A DNA stretch of 12,935 nucleotides from Gemmatimonadales bacterium (GTDB lineage Bacteria > Gemmatimonadota > Gemmatimonadetes > Gemmatimonadales > GWC2-71-9). Positions within the stretch are counted from its first letter, which is position 1. Every line of letters begins with the position of its first letter. The stretch lies in contig JBDIWC010000080.1 in assembly GCA_039794085.1 (NCBI GenBank), forward strand, positions 1 through 12,935, written 5' to 3'. Made by a program: the position numbers and the translations under genes. A model generated the notes under the pieces. It searched no databases and was not told the origin of the DNA. It saw nothing but the letters and a program-made list of their open reading frames with translations. This document shows, piece by piece, positions 895 through 12,580 of this stretch.

Positions 895-903
895 CCTCGT
901 GGT

Positions 904-909
904 TAGATT
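904..909 (+). promoter_or_regulatory. Candidate -10 box of a leaderless leuS promoter
   Basis: TAGATT (TANNNT) ends 7 nt before the ATG at 917, with no SD in between. Confidence 0.5.
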
Positions 910-916
910 CCGCGCC

Positions 917-3352
917 ATGAATGTCTCCAAATACCTCCCCGAGGCGGTCGAGGCGAAGTGGCAGGCCCGCTGGGCCCACGACGGAACCAACGAGGTCGAT
1001 CTCAACGACGCCTCCCGTCCCTTTTACAACCTGATGATGTTCCCCTACCCCTCGGCGGAGGGGCTGCACGTGGGGAATCTCTTCGCCTTTACCGGGGCTG
1101 ATGTGTACGGGCGGTTCCAGCGTCTGCGCGGGTATCAGGTGTTCGAGCCGATCGGTTTCGATGCGTTCGGGATCCATTCCGAAAACTTCGCCCTCAAGGT
1201 GGGTGCCCACCCGGCCGACCTGATTCCGCGGAACATTGCCAATTTCCGGCGCCAGCTAAAGCGGTTCGGAGGGATGTTCGACTGGCGGCACGAGCTCTCC
1301 ACGACCGACCCCGCCTACTACCGGTGGACCCAGTGGCTCTTCCTGCAGCTGTACCGGGCCGGGCTCGCCTACCGGAAGAAGGCCGCCGTCAACTGGTGCC
1401 CCTCCTGCAAAACGGTGCTTGCCAACGAGCAGGTGGAAGGGGGGGTATGCGAGCGGTGCAAGTCCCCGGTGGAACAGCGCGCCTTGGAGCAGTGGTTCTT
1501 CCGGATCACCGACTACGCGGAACGGCTCCTCGCCAACCTCGACGATTCAACCAAGATGGATTGGTCGGACACGACCACGACGGCCCAGCGGAACTGGATT
1601 GGACGGAGCGAGGGGGCGGAGGTCATCTTCCGGGTGGAGAACCACGACGTCCCCGTTTTCACGACCCGGCCCGACACCCTCTTCGGAGCCACCTTTCTGG
1701 TGCTCGCACCGGAGCACCCTCTGGTGGATGTCATCGCGACCGATGCGCAGCGGGACGCCGTTCACGCCTACCGCCAGGCCGCAGCGGCCCAGGACCTGGT
1801 GACCCGGAAGGTGGGCGGGCGGGACAAGACCGGTGTTTTCACCGGAGCGATGGCGCGGAACCCCGGCACGGGGGAGAAGGTTCCGGTCTGGGTCGCGGAT
1901 TACGTGCTGATGGAGTACGGGACCGGCGCCATCATGGCGGTGCCGGGGCACGACGAGCGCGACCTGGCGTTTGCCCGGGCCTTTGATCTTCCGGTGGTCC
2001 GCGTTCTCGCAGCCCCGGAGGATGATGCCGCCACTCCGATCACCGACGCCGACATGGACACCGCTGATCGCCGACTGGTCAACTCGGGCTCGTACGACGG
2101 CATGTCCCCGGGGGATGGGGCGGCGGCGATCTCACGTGATCTCGCCGCTCGGGGGGAGGGCCGGTCCGTCGTGCAGTACCGTCTTCACGACTGGTGCATC
2201 TCACGGCAGCGCTATTGGGGCCCCCCGATCCCCATCATCCACTGCGACACCTGCGGTCCGGTGCCGGTGCCGGAGGAGGACCTCCCGGTGCTTCTCCCCC
2301 GCATCGACGACTTCACGCCGGATGATTCGGGCATCTCGCCCCTCGCCCGGCACGAGGAGTGGTATTTCGCTCCCTGTCCCTCCTGCGGCGCGCCGAGCCG
2401 TCGGGAAACGGACGTCTCCGACACCTTTCTCGACTCGGCCTGGTACTATCTGCGCTACACCAGCACCGATTGCGACGACCGCGCCTTCGATGCGGACCGC
2501 GTGTCCCGCTGGCTTCCGGTGGCCAGCTACATCGGCGGGAATGAGCATGCGGTGCTCCATCTTCTGTACAGTCGTTTCGTGGCGATGGTGCTGCACGACC
2601 AGGGTCTCCTCCCCTTCGAGGAGCCCTTCCGGCGTTTCCGCGCGCACGGCCTGATCGTCAAGGATGGCGCCAAGATGTCGAAGTCGCGGGGGAACGTGGT
2701 CATCCCCGATGAGTACATCGCCACCTGGGGGGCCGACACCTTCCGGCTCTATCTGATGTTCCTCGGCCCCTTCCAGGCGGGCGGGGATTTCCGGGACAGC
2801 GGAATCAGCGGACCTCGGCGTTTCCTCGACAAGGTGTGGGAGCTCGTCGATCGATCGATCCGGGAGGATGCGGACGGGGAGATCGAGAAGGCGGGACTGG
2901 CCCGCTGGCACCGGACGGTGAAGAAGGTGACGGACGACTACGAGTCGCTCAACTACAACACGGCGATCGCGGCGATGATGGAGATGCTGAACGTGCTCCG
3001 CGAGTCCAACTGTTGCGAACGCCGCCTGGTGGAGGATTTCGTGGTGATGCTGGCTCCCCTCGCGCCGCACTTCGCCGAGGAGTGCTGGGAGCGGCTGGGG
3101 CACGGGACCTCGGTGTTCGAGGCCTCCTGGCCCGCGTACGATGCCCGCCTGCTGGTGGAGGACGTGGTGGAGGTCGTGGTGCAGGTGAACGGAAAGACCC
3201 GCGGAAAGGTGACCGTGGTGCGCGACGCCCCGGAATCTGTGGTGGTGGCCCTGGCGCGGGAGGAGGAAGGTGTGGCGAGAAACCTCGGCGCCCGGGAGAT
3301 CCGGAAGGTGGTCCACGTACCGAACCGGCTGGTGAACCTGGTGGTGGGGTAG
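917..3352 (+). CDS. leuS: Leucine--tRNA ligase (811 aa)
   Basis: MFPYPS..GLHVGN (HIGH motif), KMSKS, CP1 editing motifs FTTRPDT and [52 protein letters not shown], and C-terminal VQVNGK. Start placed at ATG 917 rather than GTG 899. Confidence 0.98.
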
Positions 3353-3525: not shown

Positions 3526-5181
3526 ATGGCCGCTCGAACCATCTCCCTGAGTCAAAGGATCAACCTGACCGGAGTGGCGCTCATCGCGCTCCAGAGCCTG
3601 CTCATCATCTGGTTGACCTCGGACAGCGCGGCCCGGGAGCACAATGGAAGCACCGATGCACAGCTCACCGCGCTGGTGAGGTCCGCGGCGGCTCTGGCGG
3701 TGTCCGATCCGGCTGATAGCGCGCGAATCGTGGGACCTGTGGGGGTCATGAACCTGGAACGCCTGACCTATGGAGAGACCGGGCGAACCGGTGCACCCCT
3801 TCGGGAGAGGATGGTCCTCATGGTGGTGGACGGATCGGGGGGACTCCTCTGGGCCTCCGATTCTTCCCGGGCCAACCCCGGCCTCCTGGGGGAGGAGCGG
3901 GATCGGCCCGCGGCGGGCGAGGTCGAAACCCGGAGGTTGGTGGGTCTCCGGATCGCCGCCACCCGGATCCGCGGTACCGACCGGTACGTGGTGGCCTCGG
4001 CACCGGACACGGCGTTGCGGTTCGACAGCACCGTCCTCCGCTTCGTGGCGGTCTTTTCCGCCGTGGGGCTCGGTCTCTTCCTCTTCGCCGCAGTCTGGAT
4101 CAACCGCAACATTATCAAGCCCCTGGGTGCCACCCAGGCAATCCTGACCCACGTCGCCTCGGCCGACCTCCGGGTGACCCAGGGGGAGATCGATGCAGTC
4201 GGCGGAGGGCCGGTCACCGAGGCGCTCCGCGGCATGATCCGGCATCTCCACGGACTGGTCACCACCATTCGGAACTCCTCCACCGACTCGGCGGCGCTCG
4301 CGGAGGAGATCTCCGCCGCGACCGAGGAGATGACCGCCTCGACCGAGGAGGTGGCCGGCACCACGGCCGACCTGACCGAGCGGGCCTCCGCCCAGGCCGG
4401 CGTGACCCGGGTGCTGGCGGACGATGCCTCACGGATCCTGGCCATCGGGCAGGAACTGGCGGCGGGAGCCCAGCAGGCGGCGAGCCGGAACGAGGCCCTC
4501 ACGGCCCTGGTTCGCCGCCACCAGGAAGGATTGGAACGGAGCACCCGGGATCTCGAGATCCTGGCGGAGGAGGTGGCCGCCGGAACCCGGGAGGCGGAGG
4601 AACTGGAGGAATCGGCCGGAGCCATCGAGGCGTTCGTCCAGCAGACCCAGGCGATCGCCAAGCAGACCCACATGCTCGCCTTGAATGCGGCCATCGAGGC
4701 GGAACGCGCCGGGGAGGAGGGCCGAGGATTCACCGTGGTGGCGGACGAAGTGCGGAAACTCGCCACCCGGGCCCAGGATGCCGCGGCGGTGACCCGGGCG
4801 ACGGTCGCGGAGACGGTCAAACGAGTGCATGCCGCCCGGGAGCGGCTGCTGCGGCTCGGGGCGGGAGGGCTCAAGGCACGGGATGCCGCCCGGGCCGCCA
4901 CCGAGGGGCTGCAGCAGGTCACCGCCGAAGCGGAGGAAACGGATGCCTGGGCCAAGGGGATCTCCCGGTCCGCACACGATGTGCGCGAATTGATCGAGGG
5001 GGCGCACAACCGGATCAAGGAGATCTCCGCGCAGGCCGAGGACTATGCGGCGGCGGCCGAGGAGATCGCCGCGGCGTCGGAAGAGATGAACGCGTCCACC
5101 GAGGAGGTGGCGGCCTCCGCCGGCCAGCTGGCCGAGGCGTCGAACCGGCTGATGGCGGCGATCCAGCAGTTCAAGATCTGA
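3526..5181 (+). CDS. Methyl-accepting chemotaxis protein (551 aa; TM - sensor - TM - HAMP - signalling domain)
   Basis: ATG 3526 after AAGG. Two hydrophobic segments ([37 protein letters not shown]), HAMP start IIKPL, hairpin tip [34 protein letters not shown], and methylation-type repeats [18 protein letters not shown] and [18 protein letters not shown]. Confidence 0.93.
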
Positions 5182-5196
5182 AGCGGAGGACGCATC

Positions 5197-6357
5197 ATGG
5201 CGCACACGGGGATCACCGTGACGGCGGCGGCACGCGCCGTGGTCCTTTCGGCAGCCGGTATCGTGGTCGGGCTCATCTGGGACATCTCCTGGCACCGGAC
5301 CATCGGCCGGGACACGCTGTTCAGTCCACCGCACGTGCTCGAGTACATTGCCGCGAGCGTGGCGGGGGTGTCCTGCGGGTGGCTCATCCTCCAGACCACC
5401 TTCGATGGCCGGCGCTCGGCCGATCGGGCGTCCGCCGTGGCCTTCTGGGGGTTCCAGGGTCCGCTCGGCGCCTGGATGACCGTCTGGGGCACCTTTGCGA
5501 TGCTCGCTTCGGCGCCCTTCGACGACTGGTGGCACAACGCCTATGGCCTCGACGTGGAGATCCTCAGCCCGCCTCACGTGATCCTGCTTTTCGGCATGCT
5601 GGCGGTGGTGCTCGGGGCCGTGCTCATGGCGGTGGCGGTTCAGAACCGCGAGGGAGAATCAAGTCGGCGGTTCACTCTCCTGTACGCCTTTGCATCGGCG
5701 ATGCTGCTGCTGATTCTCACCACGGCGGCCTTCGCCTACACCGCGTTTCCCAACACCTTTCGGGGCCCGTCGTTCTACCTCGTGTCCGCCATGGCCTATG
5801 TGCTGCCCCTGGTGGTGGTGGCCCGGTCGGCCCGGCGCCGGTGGCCCGCCACGACGGCGGCTCTGCTCTACCTCGGAGTGTCCCTCGGGCTGAGCTGGAT
5901 CCTGCAGGCGTTTCCCGCCGTGCCGAAACTCGCGCCGATCTACCGGGAGATCACCCACATGGTTCCCCCGCCGTTCCCCCTCCTGCTGGTGGTGCCCGCG
6001 CTGGTGATCGACCTGCTGGTGCGGCGGGACCAGCGTCGCGGCTGGCCCGACTGGGGACGCGCCCTCGTGACCGGGCCCCTGGCCCTGGTCGCCTTCTTCG
6101 GCGTGAACTGGTTCTGGGGCGACTTCCTCCTCTCCGAATCGGCTCGCAACGCTCTGTTTGCCATGGATCAATGGGAGTACTTCAGCCGTCCCGGGTCGTG
6201 GCAGTACGAGTATTGGGGCCTGTCCCGGAGGGCGCCCCCGGGAAGCTTCGACTGGGCCTCCTTCGCCGGCCCCTTCGGCATCGCCGGTCTCCTGGGGATC
6301 GCCAGCGGCCGGATCGGGCTCTGGCTCGGAAACTGGCTCGGGAGAGTCACACGGTGA
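5197..6357 (+). CDS. Polytopic membrane protein (386 aa) with two PmoC/AmoC-like metal-binding motifs
   Basis: GGAGG SD at 5185-5189. Roughly 10 hydrophobic segments by eye. Motifs WDISWHRTIGRDTLFSPPH (D29/H33/H46) and FDDWWHNAYGLDVEILSPPH (D109/H113/H127). The CDS is confident; the function is inferred. Confidence 0.85.
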   Translation: MAHTGITVTAAARAVVLSAAGIVVGLIWDISWHRTIGRDTLFSPPHVLEYIAASVAGVSCGWLILQTTFDGRRSADRASAVAFWGFQGPLGAWMTVWGTFAMLASAPFDDWWHNAYGLDVEILSPPHVILLFGMLAVVLGAVLMAVAVQNREGESSRRFTLLYAFASAMLLLILTTAAFAYTAFPNTFRGPSFYLVSAMAYVLPLVVVARSARRRWPATTAALLYLGVSLGLSWILQAFPAVPKLAPIYREITHMVPPPFPLLLVVPALVIDLLVRRDQRRGWPDWGRALVTGPLALVAFFGVNWFWGDFLLSESARNALFAMDQWEYFSRPGSWQYEYWGLSRRAPPGSFDWASFAGPFGIAGLLGIASGRIGLWLGNWLGRVTR

Positions 6358-7835
6358 CGCGGGCCCTGCGACGCCTGGGGGTTCCAGTGTTCCTTGCTGG
6401 AGTGGTGGTCGCGCTCAGTGGGCATGTCGGGAGTCCCGACACCTGGTTCGAGGGGATGGCGGGGCCCTATCGCGTACAGGTGGTTGTGCGGGCACCTGGA
6501 GTGGTGCCCGGTCTGGCCCAGATCACGATCCGGACATTCGATGACCGCGTGACCGGTGTGTTGGTGACGCCGGTGGTCTGGAATGCCGCGGAGGGAGGTG
6601 CGCCCCCGCCCGATCGGGGGAAGCCGGTGCCGGGCGCTCCGGGCACCTGGTCGGCGGAGCTCTGGTTCATGTCGCCCACCACCTACAACCTCCGGCTGGT
6701 GGTCGAGGGAGACGAGGGGGAAGGCACGGCCGTGATCCCGGTGACCGCCGTTGCGACCCGGATCCTCCCGATGACCCGCGGGTTCGGACTCATGCTGGCG
6801 GGGCTCGGTCTTTTTCTCGGGGTGGGACTGCTCACCATTCTCCGGGCCGCGGCGCGGGAGAGCGTCCTCGCCCCGGGGGAATCGCCCACCCCGCGCGACA
6901 GGCGGCGAGGGTGGATCGTTCTGGCTCTCGGAGCGCCCGCTCTGGCCGGTCTCGTGTGGGGGGGATTGGTGTGGTGGCAGAGGGAGGAGGAGGCGTATCG
7001 CCGGGGGCTGTACCAGCCGCTGGACGTCGAGGCGCGAGTGGACACGAGTGGCAGCGGACTCGTCCTGGCGCTGGAGGTGACCGACCAGGCGTGGAAGGCC
7101 CGGAACTGGACACCCCTCCTTCCGGATCATGGCAAGCTCATGCACCTCTTTGCCGTGGCGGTGGAGGGAGACGGGTTCGCGCATCTGCATCCGGTCTCCG
7201 CCGACACGACCACGTTCACGACCCCCCTTCCCGAGCTCCCCTCCGGCCGGTACCGCCTCTTTGCCGACGTGGTGCACGAGAGCGGATTCCCCCGCACCTT
7301 CGTGACGGAGGTGGAGATCCCCGCTGGCGAACCGGGTCCTGAGGGAGACCCCGACGATGCCTGGACCTCGGCGCCTCCGGCTGATTCGGTGTTCACCCAT
7401 CCCGATGGCGCCACGGTCCGGTGGTTGCGGAGCGGGAACCCCGTCGTGGGAGAGGAGGCGGGACTCCGGTTTCAGGTGATGGATTCCTTGGGAACGCCGG
7501 TGGCTCTGGAGCCCTACATGAGCATGCGCGGCCATGCGATGGTGGCCCGGGAGGACGGCGGCGTGTTCGTGCATCTCCATCCGAGTGGCACCATCTCCGC
7601 CGTGGCGCAGCAGGCGCTCACCGTCCGCCTGCCGACCGATACCGTGTTTGGCTCGGTATCGCGGCGTCTCGACTCCCTGGCCCTGCCGATGCCCCACCCG
7701 ATGGAGCCCATCGGTGAGCTGGCCTTCCCCTGGGCCTTTCCCGAGCCGGGACGCTACCGGGTCTGGGTCCAGACCCGGTGGGGCGGGGAGGTACCGACGG
7801 CGGTGTTCCAAGTGGTGGTGGAAGATAGACGATAG
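6354..7835 (+). CDS. His/Met-rich membrane-anchored extracytoplasmic protein (493 aa), putative copper-binding
   Basis: GTG start overlaps the upstream TGA (GTGA), with a GGAGAG SD at 6341-6346. Signal-peptide-like N-terminus followed by HVGSPD, two central TM helices, and a duplicated C-terminal module (DHGKLMH..AHLHP..GRYRLFAD / YMSMRGH..VHLHP..GRYRVWVQ). Confidence 0.85.
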   Translation: MTRALRRLGVPVFLAGVVVALSGHVGSPDTWFEGMAGPYRVQVVVRAPGVVPGLAQITIRTFDDRVTGVLVTPVVWNAAEGGAPPPDRGKPVPGAPGTWSAELWFMSPTTYNLRLVVEGDEGEGTAVIPVTAVATRILPMTRGFGLMLAGLGLFLGVGLLTILRAAARESVLAPGESPTPRDRRRGWIVLALGAPALAGLVWGGLVWWQREEEAYRRGLYQPLDVEARVDTSGSGLVLALEVTDQAWKARNWTPLLPDHGKLMHLFAVAVEGDGFAHLHPVSADTTTFTTPLPELPSGRYRLFADVVHESGFPRTFVTEVEIPAGEPGPEGDPDDAWTSAPPADSVFTHPDGATVRWLRSGNPVVGEEAGLRFQVMDSLGTPVALEPYMSMRGHAMVAREDGGVFVHLHPSGTISAVAQQALTVRLPTDTVFGSVSRRLDSLALPMPHPMEPIGELAFPWAFPEPGRYRVWVQTRWGGEVPTAVFQVVVEDRR

Positions 7836-7865
7836 GCGGTTGGGGGCGAATTACATTCGCCCTAG

Positions 7866-7928
7866 CCCGGGGCTTTCGCCCCGGGCTCGGTGGTGCGGCC
7901 GTTCACACGGCCGGGTGCTTACCCGGAT
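7866..7928 (-). repeat. 63-bp multi-hairpin repeat, copy A (left arm of an inverted pair)
   Basis: 59/63 identical to the reverse complement of 10754-10816. Contains the hairpins GCCCGGGGC-TTTC-GCCCCGGGC and CGGCCGT-TCAC-ACGGCCG. Confidence 0.9.
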
Positions 7929-7963
7929 TCCCGCAGTGCGGTCCACCACCCCTCACGGCCGCC

Positions 7964-7998
7964 CCTCGAACTTCACCCTTCGAGCTTCACACTTCTCT
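7964..7998. repeat. CTTCnnn heptamer tandem repeat
   Basis: CCTCGAA CTTCACC CTTCGAG CTTCACA CTTCTCT; same family as 3452-3486. Confidence 0.75.
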
Positions 7999-8000
7999 CA

Positions 8001-8045
8001 GGGCTTTCGCCCCGGCTCGGCGGTGCGCCCGTTCGCACGGCCGGG
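8001..8045 (-). repeat. Partial, degenerate copy B of the 63-bp repeat
   Basis: GGGCTTTCGCCCCGGCTCGGCGGTGCGCCCGTTCGCACGGCCGGG aligns with 7870-7915 in direct orientation. Confidence 0.85.
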
Positions 8046-8117
8046 ACTCTCCCGCTGCCACCCTACTTTCCCTGCGCCCCCGTGGGTGCGCTGCTTGCGG
8101 CGCTGGCCAAAATAGCC

Positions 8118-8561
8118 TCACCGAACCACGATGGTCATCAAACCGAAGACTTCCTCCATACTCGTGATCCGGGCGAAGATTCCGACCGTTCCGACCGCGA
8201 CGCCGCGAACCCACGCGCTGGTGTCCGAGTCGGGGGAGAGCACGACCGCACTGTCGGGGCGGGCCTCCCATCGGATCACGAACGGCACCCCCGACAGGCA
8301 GGAGGTGAATGCTTGAGTTGGGCGTGCCGCTACGTGGACGGAGTCACCCACAGACACGGTGTCTCTCTGGGGCGTCAGTCCCACAGGGGAGCCGAGACAT
8401 GTATCGTTGGGGGGAGGGGGAAACTCAACCGGGTTTCCCCCGCAGGCTGTCAGGAGCCCCGCGACGGCGAGTACTTGCCGCACTGCGGCGGCCAAGCTTG
8501 GCGGGGGCCTCTGACACGACACGGAATCAGCCGCATTCGCGCTCCGGTGGAGCGACAACAT
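8118..8561 (-). CDS. Putative lipoprotein with a bacterial Ig-like (Big_2-type) domain
   Basis: ATG overlaps the upstream TGA (TGATG) with an AAGGGGG SD. Lipobox VLAVAGLLTA-C. TPQRDTVSVGDSV...W...VRGVAVGTVGIFA follows the Big_2 pattern. The start could be further downstream. Confidence 0.7.
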   Translation of the reverse strand: MLSLHRSANAADSVSCQRPPPSLAAAVRQVLAVAGLLTACGGNPVEFPPPPNDTCLGSPVGLTPQRDTVSVGDSVHVAARPTQAFTSCLSGVPFVIRWEARPDSAVVLSPDSDTSAWVRGVAVGTVGIFARITSMEEVFGLMTIVVR

Positions 8562-10477
8562 CAGAGACCCCCTTGGTTGTAGAGATTGAAGAGCCAGAGT
8601 TGGCGGAAGTAGGCCTTGTCCCAGGTCGGTGGTAGCGTGGCGGACACCGTGATCTGGTTGTACAGCCGGCCGGTTGCGAAGTACCGCTGCTGAGTCGTAG
8701 GGTTGATCGCGGTCTGTGGATCAAATGGCGGGGAGAGGTCAGGTGTGTCGAGGCAGTAGATGAACTGGTCGATCCCACCCAGTTTCGTGTCCCAGATTCC
8801 TGTGGAGGCGTCCCTCAGGGCACATGACTGGAACACCTGAACTATTAAGTTGCCCGGCCATGTTACCTGGTCATCATCTGTCCCACTCTCGTTCTGCGGA
8901 CCGTTTGGATCGGAAGGCCCATCCACCAGGTCGTAGAGAAATCCCGACACGGCGCCCTCTACGATCGAACCGTTCCCGACCATTCTGTCGGGATTATCCT
9001 CAGCCCTGAAGTCCGAGTACCTTTGATTCTGGAAGATCTTGCTACCCCCGACCCACGCCGAGAAAAAATCCGCGAATCCCTCCGTAAGCGCACAGGTCAG
9101 TGTTGTCTCCGTACCCGGGAAATGTGGATTCGGACAACCTGTCGGAAGCTGCCACTTTTCGATGCCTTCATACTGATAGCCATGTCCGTACTCATGCATC
9201 ACCACAAAGACCCCATCCTCCCCGAACGCTCCCGGGTTCTTCATCAGAACAACCTCAGTGAAGCACCCGAAGTCCGGGTGGCAATAGCTGATATCAACGT
9301 CCGGGTCGTCATAAATGTCAGATGCCCAGATCAGCATGCTGCTGCGGGAGTGCCCGAACTTGGTGAATGCCTGTGGGACAAACTCCTCCATGATGGAGAA
9401 TGAGCTGCCCGCTACATCGTTGTTCACCAAGAGGAGGTTCCCCGCCGTGCCAGTAAAGGCGGCGAGAAATGACCCGACGGATGCCCCATTCTTCCCCTTC
9501 CCGACTGACACCAGGCCCTGCATTGTGTACTCCCCCTCGGCATACTCGAACCCGTCAGGACAAACCACTGTGAAGTCCCCATTGCTGGATACGGTACTGA
9601 CACTCGGCCCCTCGAAGAGGTCCCACTCCAGCACCTCGGGACTGCTTCGGCCGAAACAGACTACCGACAACTGACCCCCGCGAATCCCGACATTCTGATT
9701 GAGCAAGAAATCGTGATACTTGACGGAGCCCTGCACCGTCGCCTGGGACCCCATCGCCAGCCCCTCCACCGTTCCTGCAGGCCGAGGCCTGGGCCGGGGA
9801 AACCTTACCCCGTAGGCGCCGTACTCAAACCGGAAGGCGGGATCCACCACCGTGCTGTCCCAGCCGTTGGTGAGGCGCCCTCCTTCCGGGGTCACCAGCA
9901 GCCAGAGTACCCGGCTCGCGCTGTTCAGAACGGTTGTTCCATCCGGGAGCCTCTCCACCGGGGCCGCGGTGGCGGTGGCGAGCACCCGGTAGTACCCCGG
10001 CGCGTCGTATGTGATGGAGGATTCAAGACTCGTGCTCGCCGCCACTCCCAGGCCTCCCTGCCAGTTCCGCAGGGTCGCATGGCTCCGGCCCTGATTCGCC
10101 GCGCGACTCGCGGCGGGAAGGTCGAGCCGCTCCAGGGTGAACCGGACATCGGTGGCGGACACCCGTCCCGCCAGGCGAGCGGTGACCACGATCGGAACTC
10201 CCGGTCTCAGGCTCCCGGCGGCAAAAATCTCGACATCGGCAAAGGGGATGGTGGGGTGCTCGGTGATCACTTCCCCGGCGCTGCCCCCAGCCACCACAGC
10301 CTGTTGAGGAAGGGTGCCTCCGGGGGCGGTCGCATCCGGTGCACACCCGAACAGGGCCACCAGGCCGATGAAGACAATACCACGGAAGCTCAGGTATGGA
10401 AACGACTTATGACGGCCCAGTGGCCCTGCGGCTCTGGGGCTCTTGGGCTCTGCGAAAACCAGCAATTCACACCTCAA
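8561..10477 (-). CDS. Putative lipoprotein zinc metallopeptidase (gluzincin-like, about 634-638 aa)
   Basis: Lipobox IVFIGLVALFG-C. VVMHEYGH at 9182-9196 followed by ALTEGFADFF (third-ligand Glu at 9080-9082). Start uncertain: TTG 10477, or TTG 10465 behind a GAGGTG SD. Confidence 0.8.
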   Translation of the reverse strand: MRCELLVFAEPKSPRAAGPLGRHKSFPYLSFRGIVFIGLVALFGCAPDATAPGGTLPQQAVVAGGSAGEVITEHPTIPFADVEIFAAGSLRPGVPIVVTARLAGRVSATDVRFTLERLDLPAASRAANQGRSHATLRNWQGGLGVAASTSLESSITYDAPGYYRVLATATAAPVERLPDGTTVLNSASRVLWLLVTPEGGRLTNGWDSTVVDPAFRFEYGAYGVRFPRPRPRPAGTVEGLAMGSQATVQGSVKYHDFLLNQNVGIRGGQLSVVCFGRSSPEVLEWDLFEGPSVSTVSSNGDFTVVCPDGFEYAEGEYTMQGLVSVGKGKNGASVGSFLAAFTGTAGNLLLVNNDVAGSSFSIMEEFVPQAFTKFGHSRSSMLIWASDIYDDPDVDISYCHPDFGCFTEVVLMKNPGAFGEDGVFVVMHEYGHGYQYEGIEKWQLPTGCPNPHFPGTETTLTCALTEGFADFFSAWVGGSKIFQNQRYSDFRAEDNPDRMVGNGSIVEGAVSGFLYDLVDGPSDPNGPQNESGTDDDQVTWPGNLIVQVFQSCALRDASTGIWDTKLGGIDQFIYCLDTPDLSPPFDPQTAINPTTQQRYFATGRLYNQITVSATLPPTWDKAYFRQLWLFNLYNQGGL

Positions 10478-10990: not shown

Positions 10991-12451
10991 TTACGAGGAA
11001 CAGCTCACCGACAGATGCCGGGCCCAGGCCGGCGGTGACTCGGCGTACTCCGCGAAGCCCTCCCGCTCGACATGGGGCGTCCGGAGGAGGACCCGGAGCC
11101 GCTCGATCTCTCCGAAATCCCTGTGGTCCACGGCGTTCCGGATGGCCCGCTCGGCGAGCCAGTTGCGGAGCACATACGCGGGGTTCACGCCATTCATGCG
11201 GACCTTCCGTTCGGCATCGATGCTTCCCCCCCCCTCGCGCCGGAGCCGCTCCGCGTACTGACCCAGCCACTCGTCGAAGGCTGCCGCTTCCTGGAAGAAC
11301 CGCCGGAGAGATGCTGCCGCGAGGGGTTGGTCCACCTCCATGTCGCCGAGGGCGCGGAAGAAGCGGGTGTAGTCCACCGCGTGTTCCTGAAGCAGCGCCA
11401 GCAGCCGGGCCAGCAGATCTCCGTCTCCCTCCTCTTCCGTGGCGAGCCCCGCCTTCCGTCGCAACAGGTGGAGCATGCGATCCTCGAATACCGGCCGGTA
11501 CCGATCGAGCGCCGCGACCGCCTCCGGCTCGTTCAGGATGCCGAGCATTGATTCAGCGAGACGGGTGACATTCCAGAGCCCGATGCCCGGTTGGTTGCCG
11601 AAGGAGTAGCGGCCGTCGTGGTCGGAATGGTTGCAGATGAAGCCGCCGTCGTAGGCGTCGAGGAAGCCATAGGGGCCGTAATCGAGCGTGAGACCGAGGA
11701 TCGACATGTTGTCGGTGTTCATCACGCCGTGCGCGAAACCCACCGCGGCCCACTCCGCCATCAGTGCCGCCGTGCGCTCCACCGCCTCCTGTAGCAGCCG
11801 CAGGTGCCGGTCGGGAAGTCCGGTCCAGTCCGGGAAGTGATTGGCGATGACATGGTCGGCCAGTTGTGTCACCAGGTCGTGCTGGCTCCTGCTCGCGAAG
11901 AACTGGAAGGATCCGAAGCGGACATGGGTCGGGGCGAGCCGGAGCAGGGTCGCCGCCGTTTCCACCGTCTCCCGTTCGACCGGCAGGTCGCTTCCGGCGA
12001 TCCCGAGGGCCCGGGTGGTCGGGATGCCGAGTCCCGCCATCGCCTCGCTGCAGAGGAACTCCCGGATGGAGGAGCGGAGGACGGCGCGTCCGTCGCCGAA
12101 GCGGCTGTAGCGGGTCTTCCCGGCGCCCTTGAGGTGGAGGTCCCATCGCGCCCCCGCTTCCGTCAGGACCTCGCCCAGGAGGATGGCGCGACCGTCGCCA
12201 AGCTGCGGAACCCAGACGCCGAACTGGTGACCGGCGTAGACCATGGCGACGGGGTCGGCGCCGGGGGGAACCTCGTGGCCGCTGAGCAGGGGGAGAAGCG
12301 ATGTGGGGTCGAGGCCTGGGTCGAGGCCCAGGAGCTGGGCGGCGTCGGGACTGAAGGCCACCAGGTGGGGATCCGGGATCGGCGTGGGACGGATCCGCTC
12401 ATGGAACGCCTCGGGGAGGCGCGCATAGCTGTTGTCGAAGCGGAAGAGCAT
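10991..12451 (-). CDS. selO: Protein adenylyltransferase SelO (YdiU family, 486 aa)
   Basis: FDNSYARLP, YAGHQFG, LGDGRA, KGAGKTRYSRFGDGRAVLRSSIRE, GFAHGVMNTDN, DYGPYGF, NPAYVLRNW and C-terminal SCSS. Start placed at ATG 12451. Confidence 0.97.
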   Translation of the reverse strand: MLFRFDNSYARLPEAFHERIRPTPIPDPHLVAFSPDAAQLLGLDPGLDPTSLLPLLSGHEVPPGADPVAMVYAGHQFGVWVPQLGDGRAILLGEVLTEAGARWDLHLKGAGKTRYSRFGDGRAVLRSSIREFLCSEAMAGLGIPTTRALGIAGSDLPVERETVETAATLLRLAPTHVRFGSFQFFASRSQHDLVTQLADHVIANHFPDWTGLPDRHLRLLQEAVERTAALMAEWAAVGFAHGVMNTDNMSILGLTLDYGPYGFLDAYDGGFICNHSDHDGRYSFGNQPGIGLWNVTRLAESMLGILNEPEAVAALDRYRPVFEDRMLHLLRRKAGLATEEEGDGDLLARLLALLQEHAVDYTRFFRALGDMEVDQPLAAASLRRFFQEAAAFDEWLGQYAERLRREGGGSIDAERKVRMNGVNPAYVLRNWLAERAIRNAVDHRDFGEIERLRVLLRTPHVEREGFAEYAESPPAWARHLSVSCSS

Positions 12452-12456
12452 GTGGA

Positions 12457-12462
12457 AGTATA
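12457..12462 (-). promoter_or_regulatory. Candidate -10 box of a leaderless selO promoter
   Basis: Minus strand TATACT-TCCAC-ATG; no SD. Confidence 0.6.
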
Positions 12463-12580
12463 GCCCGCGAGGTCCCTCCAGGCGCTCGGCATTGTGCAAG
12501 GCCGTTCCGAGCGGAATCTCAGGATCGGTCAGCGCACAATGCAACGCGCCTTCCGGGACCTCGCGGGTTCGGGTGCTTCA

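Follow-up and report, generated by a model that had tools for sequence, protein, structure and literature searches.

The copper membrane monooxygenases (CuMMOs), which include particulate methane monooxygenase (pMMO) and ammonia monooxygenase (AMO), comprise three subunits encoded by xmoC, xmoA and xmoB, and both their catalytic copper site and the way it is loaded are still disputed (PMC13058606 and PMC12804982). The second of these papers, PMC12804982, gives the AMO ligands as D136, H140 and H153 with D146, and N207, H211 and H225 with E218, and describes a channel formed by transmembrane helices 3-6 of AmoC and helix 1 of AmoA. The CuB site is described as absent from verrucomicrobial pMMO (PMC13058606), and a published CuMMO phylogeny uses archaeal AMO as its outgroup, the word 'fusion' not occurring in its main text (PMC6215863). 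Here we describe two genes, A and B, in a window of 12,935 nucleotides (the whole stretch of DNA analysed; contig JBDIWC010000080.1 of a Gemmatimonadales bacterium, assembly GCA_039794085.1). The pair is real and tightly coupled, and it points to a so far unnamed relative of the CuMMOs: A joins the equivalent of PmoC helices 3-6 to a PmoA-like domain, both metal-ligand triads are kept, and B is always adjacent when the triads are intact. No description of this family was found in the literature; the supplements of PMC13058606, PMC12804982, PMC6215863 and PMC12537917 lie outside that coverage and could bear on its novelty.

A PmoC-like core with two triads

The features of the pair, all on the forward strand, are as follows.

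5185-5190, forward: Shine-Dalgarno-like GGAGGA ahead of gene A, from the sequence
5197-6357, forward: gene A, ATG to TGA, 386 amino acids, ten membrane helices, fusion of a PmoC core and a PmoA-like domain
5197-5652, forward: first 152 residues of A, whose four helices are the counterpart of PmoC/AmoC helices 3-6 (hhalign, hidden Markov model (HMM) ranking, model helices)
5281-5334, forward: CuC-like triad D29, H33 and H46, with R38 and D39 in between (alignment to PmoC D-x-x-W-H...R-D...H)
5521-5577, forward: CuD-like triad D109 (Asn in PmoC), H113 and H127, with conserved D119 (alignment to PmoC)
5653-6354, forward: A residues 153-386, PmoA/AmoA-like six-helix domain with the fold of energy-coupling factor (ECF) S-components; E180 and H189 of the family are A and R here
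6354-6357, forward: GTGA start/stop overlap coupling B to A, from the sequence
6354-7835, forward: gene B, GTG to TAG, 493 amino acids; signal-peptide-like helix, His24, three beta-sandwich domains, two membrane helices
6423-6758, forward: B domain 1 (residues 24-135), CrdA/YtkA/CopC-like Ig sandwich with invariant His24
6777-7004, forward: hairpin of two membrane helices in B, residues 142-169 and 180-217, whose loop is basic (model and family alignment)
7026-7823, forward: B domains 2 and 3, duplicated sandwiches (sequence, hhalign)

An initial annotation, made without database searches, had proposed two overlapping genes, the first with two D-x3-H-x12/13-H motifs recalling PmoC and its copper sites, and the second with a signal peptide, a His right after it, a soluble domain, two membrane helices and His-rich domains. 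All of this, the signal peptide in the form of a hydrophobic N-terminal helix, is borne out by the gene calls, the motif spacing (D29-x3-H33-x12-H46 and D109-x3-H113-x13-H127) and the analyses below, which also support a distant kinship of A with PmoC.

The bare double-motif pattern is not rare, occurring in 10 of the 21,424 six-frame reading frames of the host genome, and it therefore needs further support. Three lines, namely a PDB match, HMM ranking and conservation of the six ligands, place it above chance. Against 177,635 PDB sequences gene A gave two matches at E<=10, both weak (E 0.052 and 1) and both PmoC chains with the motifs in register, and a family profile returned PmoC first among six matches (E 0.011). 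Residues 1-152 matched PmoC in hhalign with P 93-94% (E 9e-8 to 3e-7, score 50-53), against P <1% for a reversed profile and a score of 20.9 for the best of 25 decoy membrane profiles. When an HMM of these residues was ranked, PmoC sequences took ranks 2-16, ahead of all other host-genome frames, within the first 16 rows covered and with 17 PmoC in the searched set; the CuMMO reference subunits came from 30 Binatia loci and two plasmids. Across 106 aligned family members, D29 is kept in 104, H33 in 92 and H46 in 105, and D109 in 104, H113 in 96, H127 in 98 and D119 in 93. The full set of six ligands, in register with PmoC, is present in 90 of the 106; the other 16 relatives lack at least one, His to Gln often being the change. 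AmoC was the most frequent Pfam match among the 106 (18 at E<=1, none above cut-off).

Spacing within the triads is identical to that of PmoC in 13 of 19 reference sequences, those matching both patterns, and the remaining six missed the second. Of 17 Binatia PmoC-like proteins that remained after thinning (loci L106-L126), 6 did not match the CuD pattern, and judging by these sequences there may be a Binatia CuMMO clade with an altered CuD region. The position of AMO D146 corresponds to D39 in A, and that of E218 to V120, which adjoins the conserved D119.

The predicted structure of A (pLDDT 94.7, pTM 0.93) has the ligand-bearing helices at residues 8-35, 44-69, 90-116 and 125-155 with the ligands at helix ends, and in this model alternating topology would place all six on one membrane face. 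The protein begins at the helix equivalent to PmoC helix 3, and so its PmoA-like part is preceded by four helices, not six. PmoC is not among the listed structural matches of A, where each entry has a single row and PmoA fills it. Close relatives of A have an N-terminus longer by 15-16 residues, and the best protein hits that bear names are from Gemmatimonadota.

The second half of A and the partner protein B

The second half of A has both the PmoA/AmoA fold and the six-helix fold of S-components, and PmoA outscores every S-component as its match. A is very probably a homologue of the PmoC core plus PmoA. The D-W-D-F-W-x-D-W-K-D loop of PmoA is not found in A, the family reading E-x(4-5)-P-N-x-x-H in the aligned region, and the E180 and H189 positions fall in the loop that holds the signature motif in PmoA. 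In this copy and its three closest relatives Ala and Arg stand in their place (window 5734-5763, forward strand), whereas the cultured Chondrinema litorale has a family member with E180 and H189 (pair WP_284688389.1 and WP_284688390.1). Where S-components have A-x-x-x-A in helix 1, this copy reads A164-x3-A168; in the family Ala is found at 164 in 40 of 106 members and Gly or Ala at 168 in 100 of 106, and this helix face probably packs on the PmoC-like half.

It had also been proposed that the locus has no pmoA or amoA. This stands in so far as canonical amo/pmo genes were not found in the host genome (94.7% complete), and falls in so far as the second half of A is itself a PmoA-like domain. 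At the level of family models no AMO or Monooxygenase_B match was found in A, B or the genome; there are two genes and not xmoC, xmoA and xmoB. No AMO, AmoC or Monooxygenase_B match over cut-off was obtained from the genome, its sole AmoC match being gene A (E 0.08). One of these scans had a control that gave no match, but a search with true PmoB profiles likewise reached no better than E 1.6. The host genome holds one copy each of A and B.

The predicted structure of B (pLDDT 93.1, pTM 0.88) opens with a hydrophobic helix (residues 2-21) and His24; a first beta domain follows, then the pair of long helices, then two more beta domains. His24, the sole His of domain 1, would be the N-terminus of the mature protein after cleavage (residues -3 and -1 are L and G). 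H-x-H motifs are confined to domains 2 and 3, both of which carry H-x-H-P; their His/Met set comprises H259, M263-H264, H277-x-H279 and H308, and H394 and H407-x-H409. The two domains resemble each other in profile comparison (P 88%) and are homologous to a stand-alone family encoded beside copZ/copA-type genes.

The description of B as a partner with PmoB topology holds for the order of its parts, and a kinship with PmoB is not supported. No collinear profile match to PmoB was found (P 6%), the one local match covering 27 columns of the C-terminal domain (P 60%). The CuB site, which calls for an N-terminal His together with an H-x-H motif in the first domain, is incomplete, as domain 1 has no H-x-H. 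The best structural neighbours of B are the sandwiches of CBM56, CrdA, fibronectin-III, filamin and CopC. With the whole 493-residue model as query, Foldseek placed AmoB (9leg_B) 37th, in the company of generic sandwich proteins (E 7e-6, TM 0.13-0.16), and PmoB/AmoB lay outside the top 50 in either structural alignment.

Distribution, joint loss and possible role

The family is labelled just 'hypothetical' and, out of 8,000 scored candidates, takes in 5,787 clusters with E<=0.001 (1,940 representatives at 50% identity), from Gemmatimonadota, Acidobacteriota, Verrucomicrobiota, Binatia, Rhodothermia and Bacteroidota. Linkage of the two genes in other genomes, a test set by the initial annotation, proved conserved and tight. 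B lies downstream of A in 77 of the best 80 of 575 genome loci, in 76 cases no more than 233 bases past the match end, and in the remaining three the sequence runs out within 190 bases. Among 251 evenly sampled genomes from the phylum, A occurs in 59, B in 57 and both in 56, the unpublished genome G186 adding one to each count. From 57 of the 59 A-bearing genomes (host genome and G186 excluded) 59 copies of A were fetched, and 56 of these have all six ligands. The three exceptions, two from one genus without both motifs and one with H33Q, are the three genomes without B. Since B is missing in exactly the ligand-deficient genomes, partner and metal sites were lost together, in about two independent events.

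These site-broken copies (L130 in G117, L131 in G153 and L132 in G054) are surrounded by a recurring cluster of sulfotransferase, PD40 propeller, short-chain dehydrogenase (SDR), acyl-CoA-ligase-like and glycosyltransferase genes, and may be a subfamily that has been turned to a new use in making lipids or surface glycans. Two genomes have genes between A and B, a GMC oxidoreductase and others in one and an HTH_23 (transposase-like) gene in another (L133 in G039, 5627-10136; L020, 9183-10319). Among 137 flanking frames no other conserved neighbour of the pair was found; SDR genes account for seven, which is weak for so common a family.

A further branch is represented by four Actinobacterial plasmid proteins of 475-496 amino acids (the survey covered 6 of 8 records), which have both triads and an A-like half and, beyond these, an A-x-A-His-Asp-Pro-Gly site, a single sandwich and a single membrane helix, and thus repeat the design of A plus a sandwich with an N-terminal His within a single chain. 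Homology of this sandwich to that of B was not significant in profile comparison. All four lie near copper or heavy-metal genes, a setting to which plasmids are skewed, and a fifth, frameshifted copy does not. Two Actinobacterial-type relatives of A of about 840 amino acids (P0394, P0395) carry a C-terminal SDR domain, which might point to an electron donor or to some coupled step.

Of the proposal that the locus encodes a copper enzyme or copper-handling complex distantly related to CuMMOs, the kinship, the copper-site signatures and the linkage are supported and the place of B as a PmoB relative is not; copper binding and catalysis are putative. The reading we favour, to which we give nearly an even chance, is that A and B are the two subunits of a copper protein of the inner membrane, a deep CuMMO relative, that carries out O2-dependent oxidation of a small or lipid-like substrate. 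The two triads of A would bind copper on the periplasmic side of the membrane, where the channel has its upper end, and B would dock on A by its membrane hairpin in the manner of PmoB, take up copper through its N-terminal His and H-x-H sites, and load or re-load A. O2 would be activated at A, with the substrate, probably neither methane nor ammonia, entering from the membrane and electrons supplied by the quinol pool or another unlinked donor.

It is also quite possible, if on the doubtful side, that the pair is a copper-handling device. In it B would capture periplasmic copper and hand it over to A, and the triads and S-component-like domain of A would import the ion, store it or alter its redox state. 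The logic would be that of CopC-CopD, YcnI-YcnJ or 'anglerase'-permease fusions, and CuMMOs would have evolved from such a device. Several observations weigh against this. The main two-gene branch sits outside copper operons, and plasmids are skewed to metal islands. No ECF module (EcfT/CbiQ) was found in the 137 flanking frames, and EcfT/CbiQ genes are rarer in genomes with the pair (10 of 56) than in others (56 of 195; the unpublished genome G161 adds one to this tally), which argues against A as a standard ECF subunit. A comparison of A with three CbiM proteins found no sequence similarity, genomes with the pair are not enriched in the copper enzyme NosZ (12 of 56, as compared with 83 of 195 others), A prefers PmoA to S-components, and receptors and MreD use the S-component fold as well (PMC11109136, section 6).

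That A is instead a Zn or Fe membrane enzyme or a transmembrane reductase on the same Asp/His scaffold, acting for example on an envelope lipid, is unlikely. Least probable is a genuine, unrecognised methane, ammonia or short-alkane monooxygenase, since for all that A retains the six catalytic-site ligands and five channel helices, its AmoC score is far below the family cut-off (10.5 of 26.7 bits) with no AMO or Monooxygenase_B match, the PmoA signature loop and CuB are missing, no PQQ alcohol dehydrogenase above family cut-off was found in the host genome, the distribution is patchy (59 of 251 genomes), and no true PmoA was found in a 401-genome search of the phylum.

With rather less than even confidence, we suggest that the pair is a widespread CuMMO scaffold pared down to two subunits, whose CuC/CuD centre is live and which acts on a new substrate or has a new role. 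It could then show how CuMMOs arose, PmoA/AmoA being an S-component-fold domain joined to a four-helix metal module and served by a periplasmic copper-capture subunit. If so, studies of CuMMO evolution would gain their first outgroup, and the debated active site of pMMO and AMO a small model that might lend itself to expression; a single chain with both triads and five channel helices and no CuB would allow a direct test of the site question and be a simpler expression target. An oxygenase would mean an unrecorded oxidation in common soil and water bacteria, whereas a copper handler would add a new system to those known for copper and be a candidate for the ancestral state.

Surroundings of the pair and comparison with known systems

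The pair is flanked on one side by leuS and, behind it, a chemoreceptor gene whose stop lies 15 nt before the start of A, and on the other by unrelated genes of which the last is selO. Adjacency of the chemoreceptor gene to A is kept in one close relative and not across the wider family. The remaining features of the window are the following.

269-679, reverse: short frame without family matches, which could be a LAGLIDADG-like remnant
899-3352, forward: leuS, an ordinary gene, by family match
3529-5181 (approximate start), forward: methyl-accepting chemotaxis protein, ending 15 nt 5' of gene A
8118-8561, forward: short frame without family matches, which could be a small exported Ig-like protein
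8561-10477, reverse: 638-amino-acid frame, lower in GC, that starts like a lipoprotein and contains an H-E-x-x-H motif; it matches no family of Pfam or NCBIfam and may be a secreted metallopeptidase without a name as yet
10991-12544, reverse: selO, an ordinary gene, by family match

In its ligands A agrees with the CuMMOs, D29/H33/H46 supplying the Asp/His/His of CuC and D109/H113/H127 lying in register with CuD, with Asp for Asn. The pair would thus work like a stripped CuMMO core, yet it stands outside the CuMMOs in its number of subunits, its family scores, CuB and the PmoA loop. Like A, PmoC/AmoC (PF04896; 7s4l_C, 6cxh_C) has two D/N-x3-H-x12/13-H triads of equal internal spacing, R-D in the first loop and four helices in matching order, whereas A is without the first two PmoC helices, has Asp in the second triad, separates the triads by 80 residues rather than 71-74, scores far under the family cut-off and is fused to the next subunit. 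PmoA/AmoA (PF02461; 7s4l_B, 6cxh_B, 9cl6_B, 9leg_A) shares 10-17% identity with the second half of A, which has no Pfam match, has the signature loop replaced and lies in one chain with the PmoC core. The ECF S-components (5edl, FolT, PanT, BioY, RibU, ThiT, NikM, CbiM, BtuM) share the six-helix fold, but A is fused to a metal-site domain, with neither a linked ECF module nor a CbiM sequence match found. PmoB/AmoB (PF04744) resembles B in its order of signal peptide, His, beta domain, two membrane helices and further beta domain(s), and in gene position after C and A; it has two beta domains where B has three, and domain 1 of B has no H-x-H. That domain shares its fold with CrdA (9ll2), CopC (5icu) and the YtkA family, and domains 2 and 3 share their sequence with unnamed H-x-H-P proteins of copZ/copA operons.
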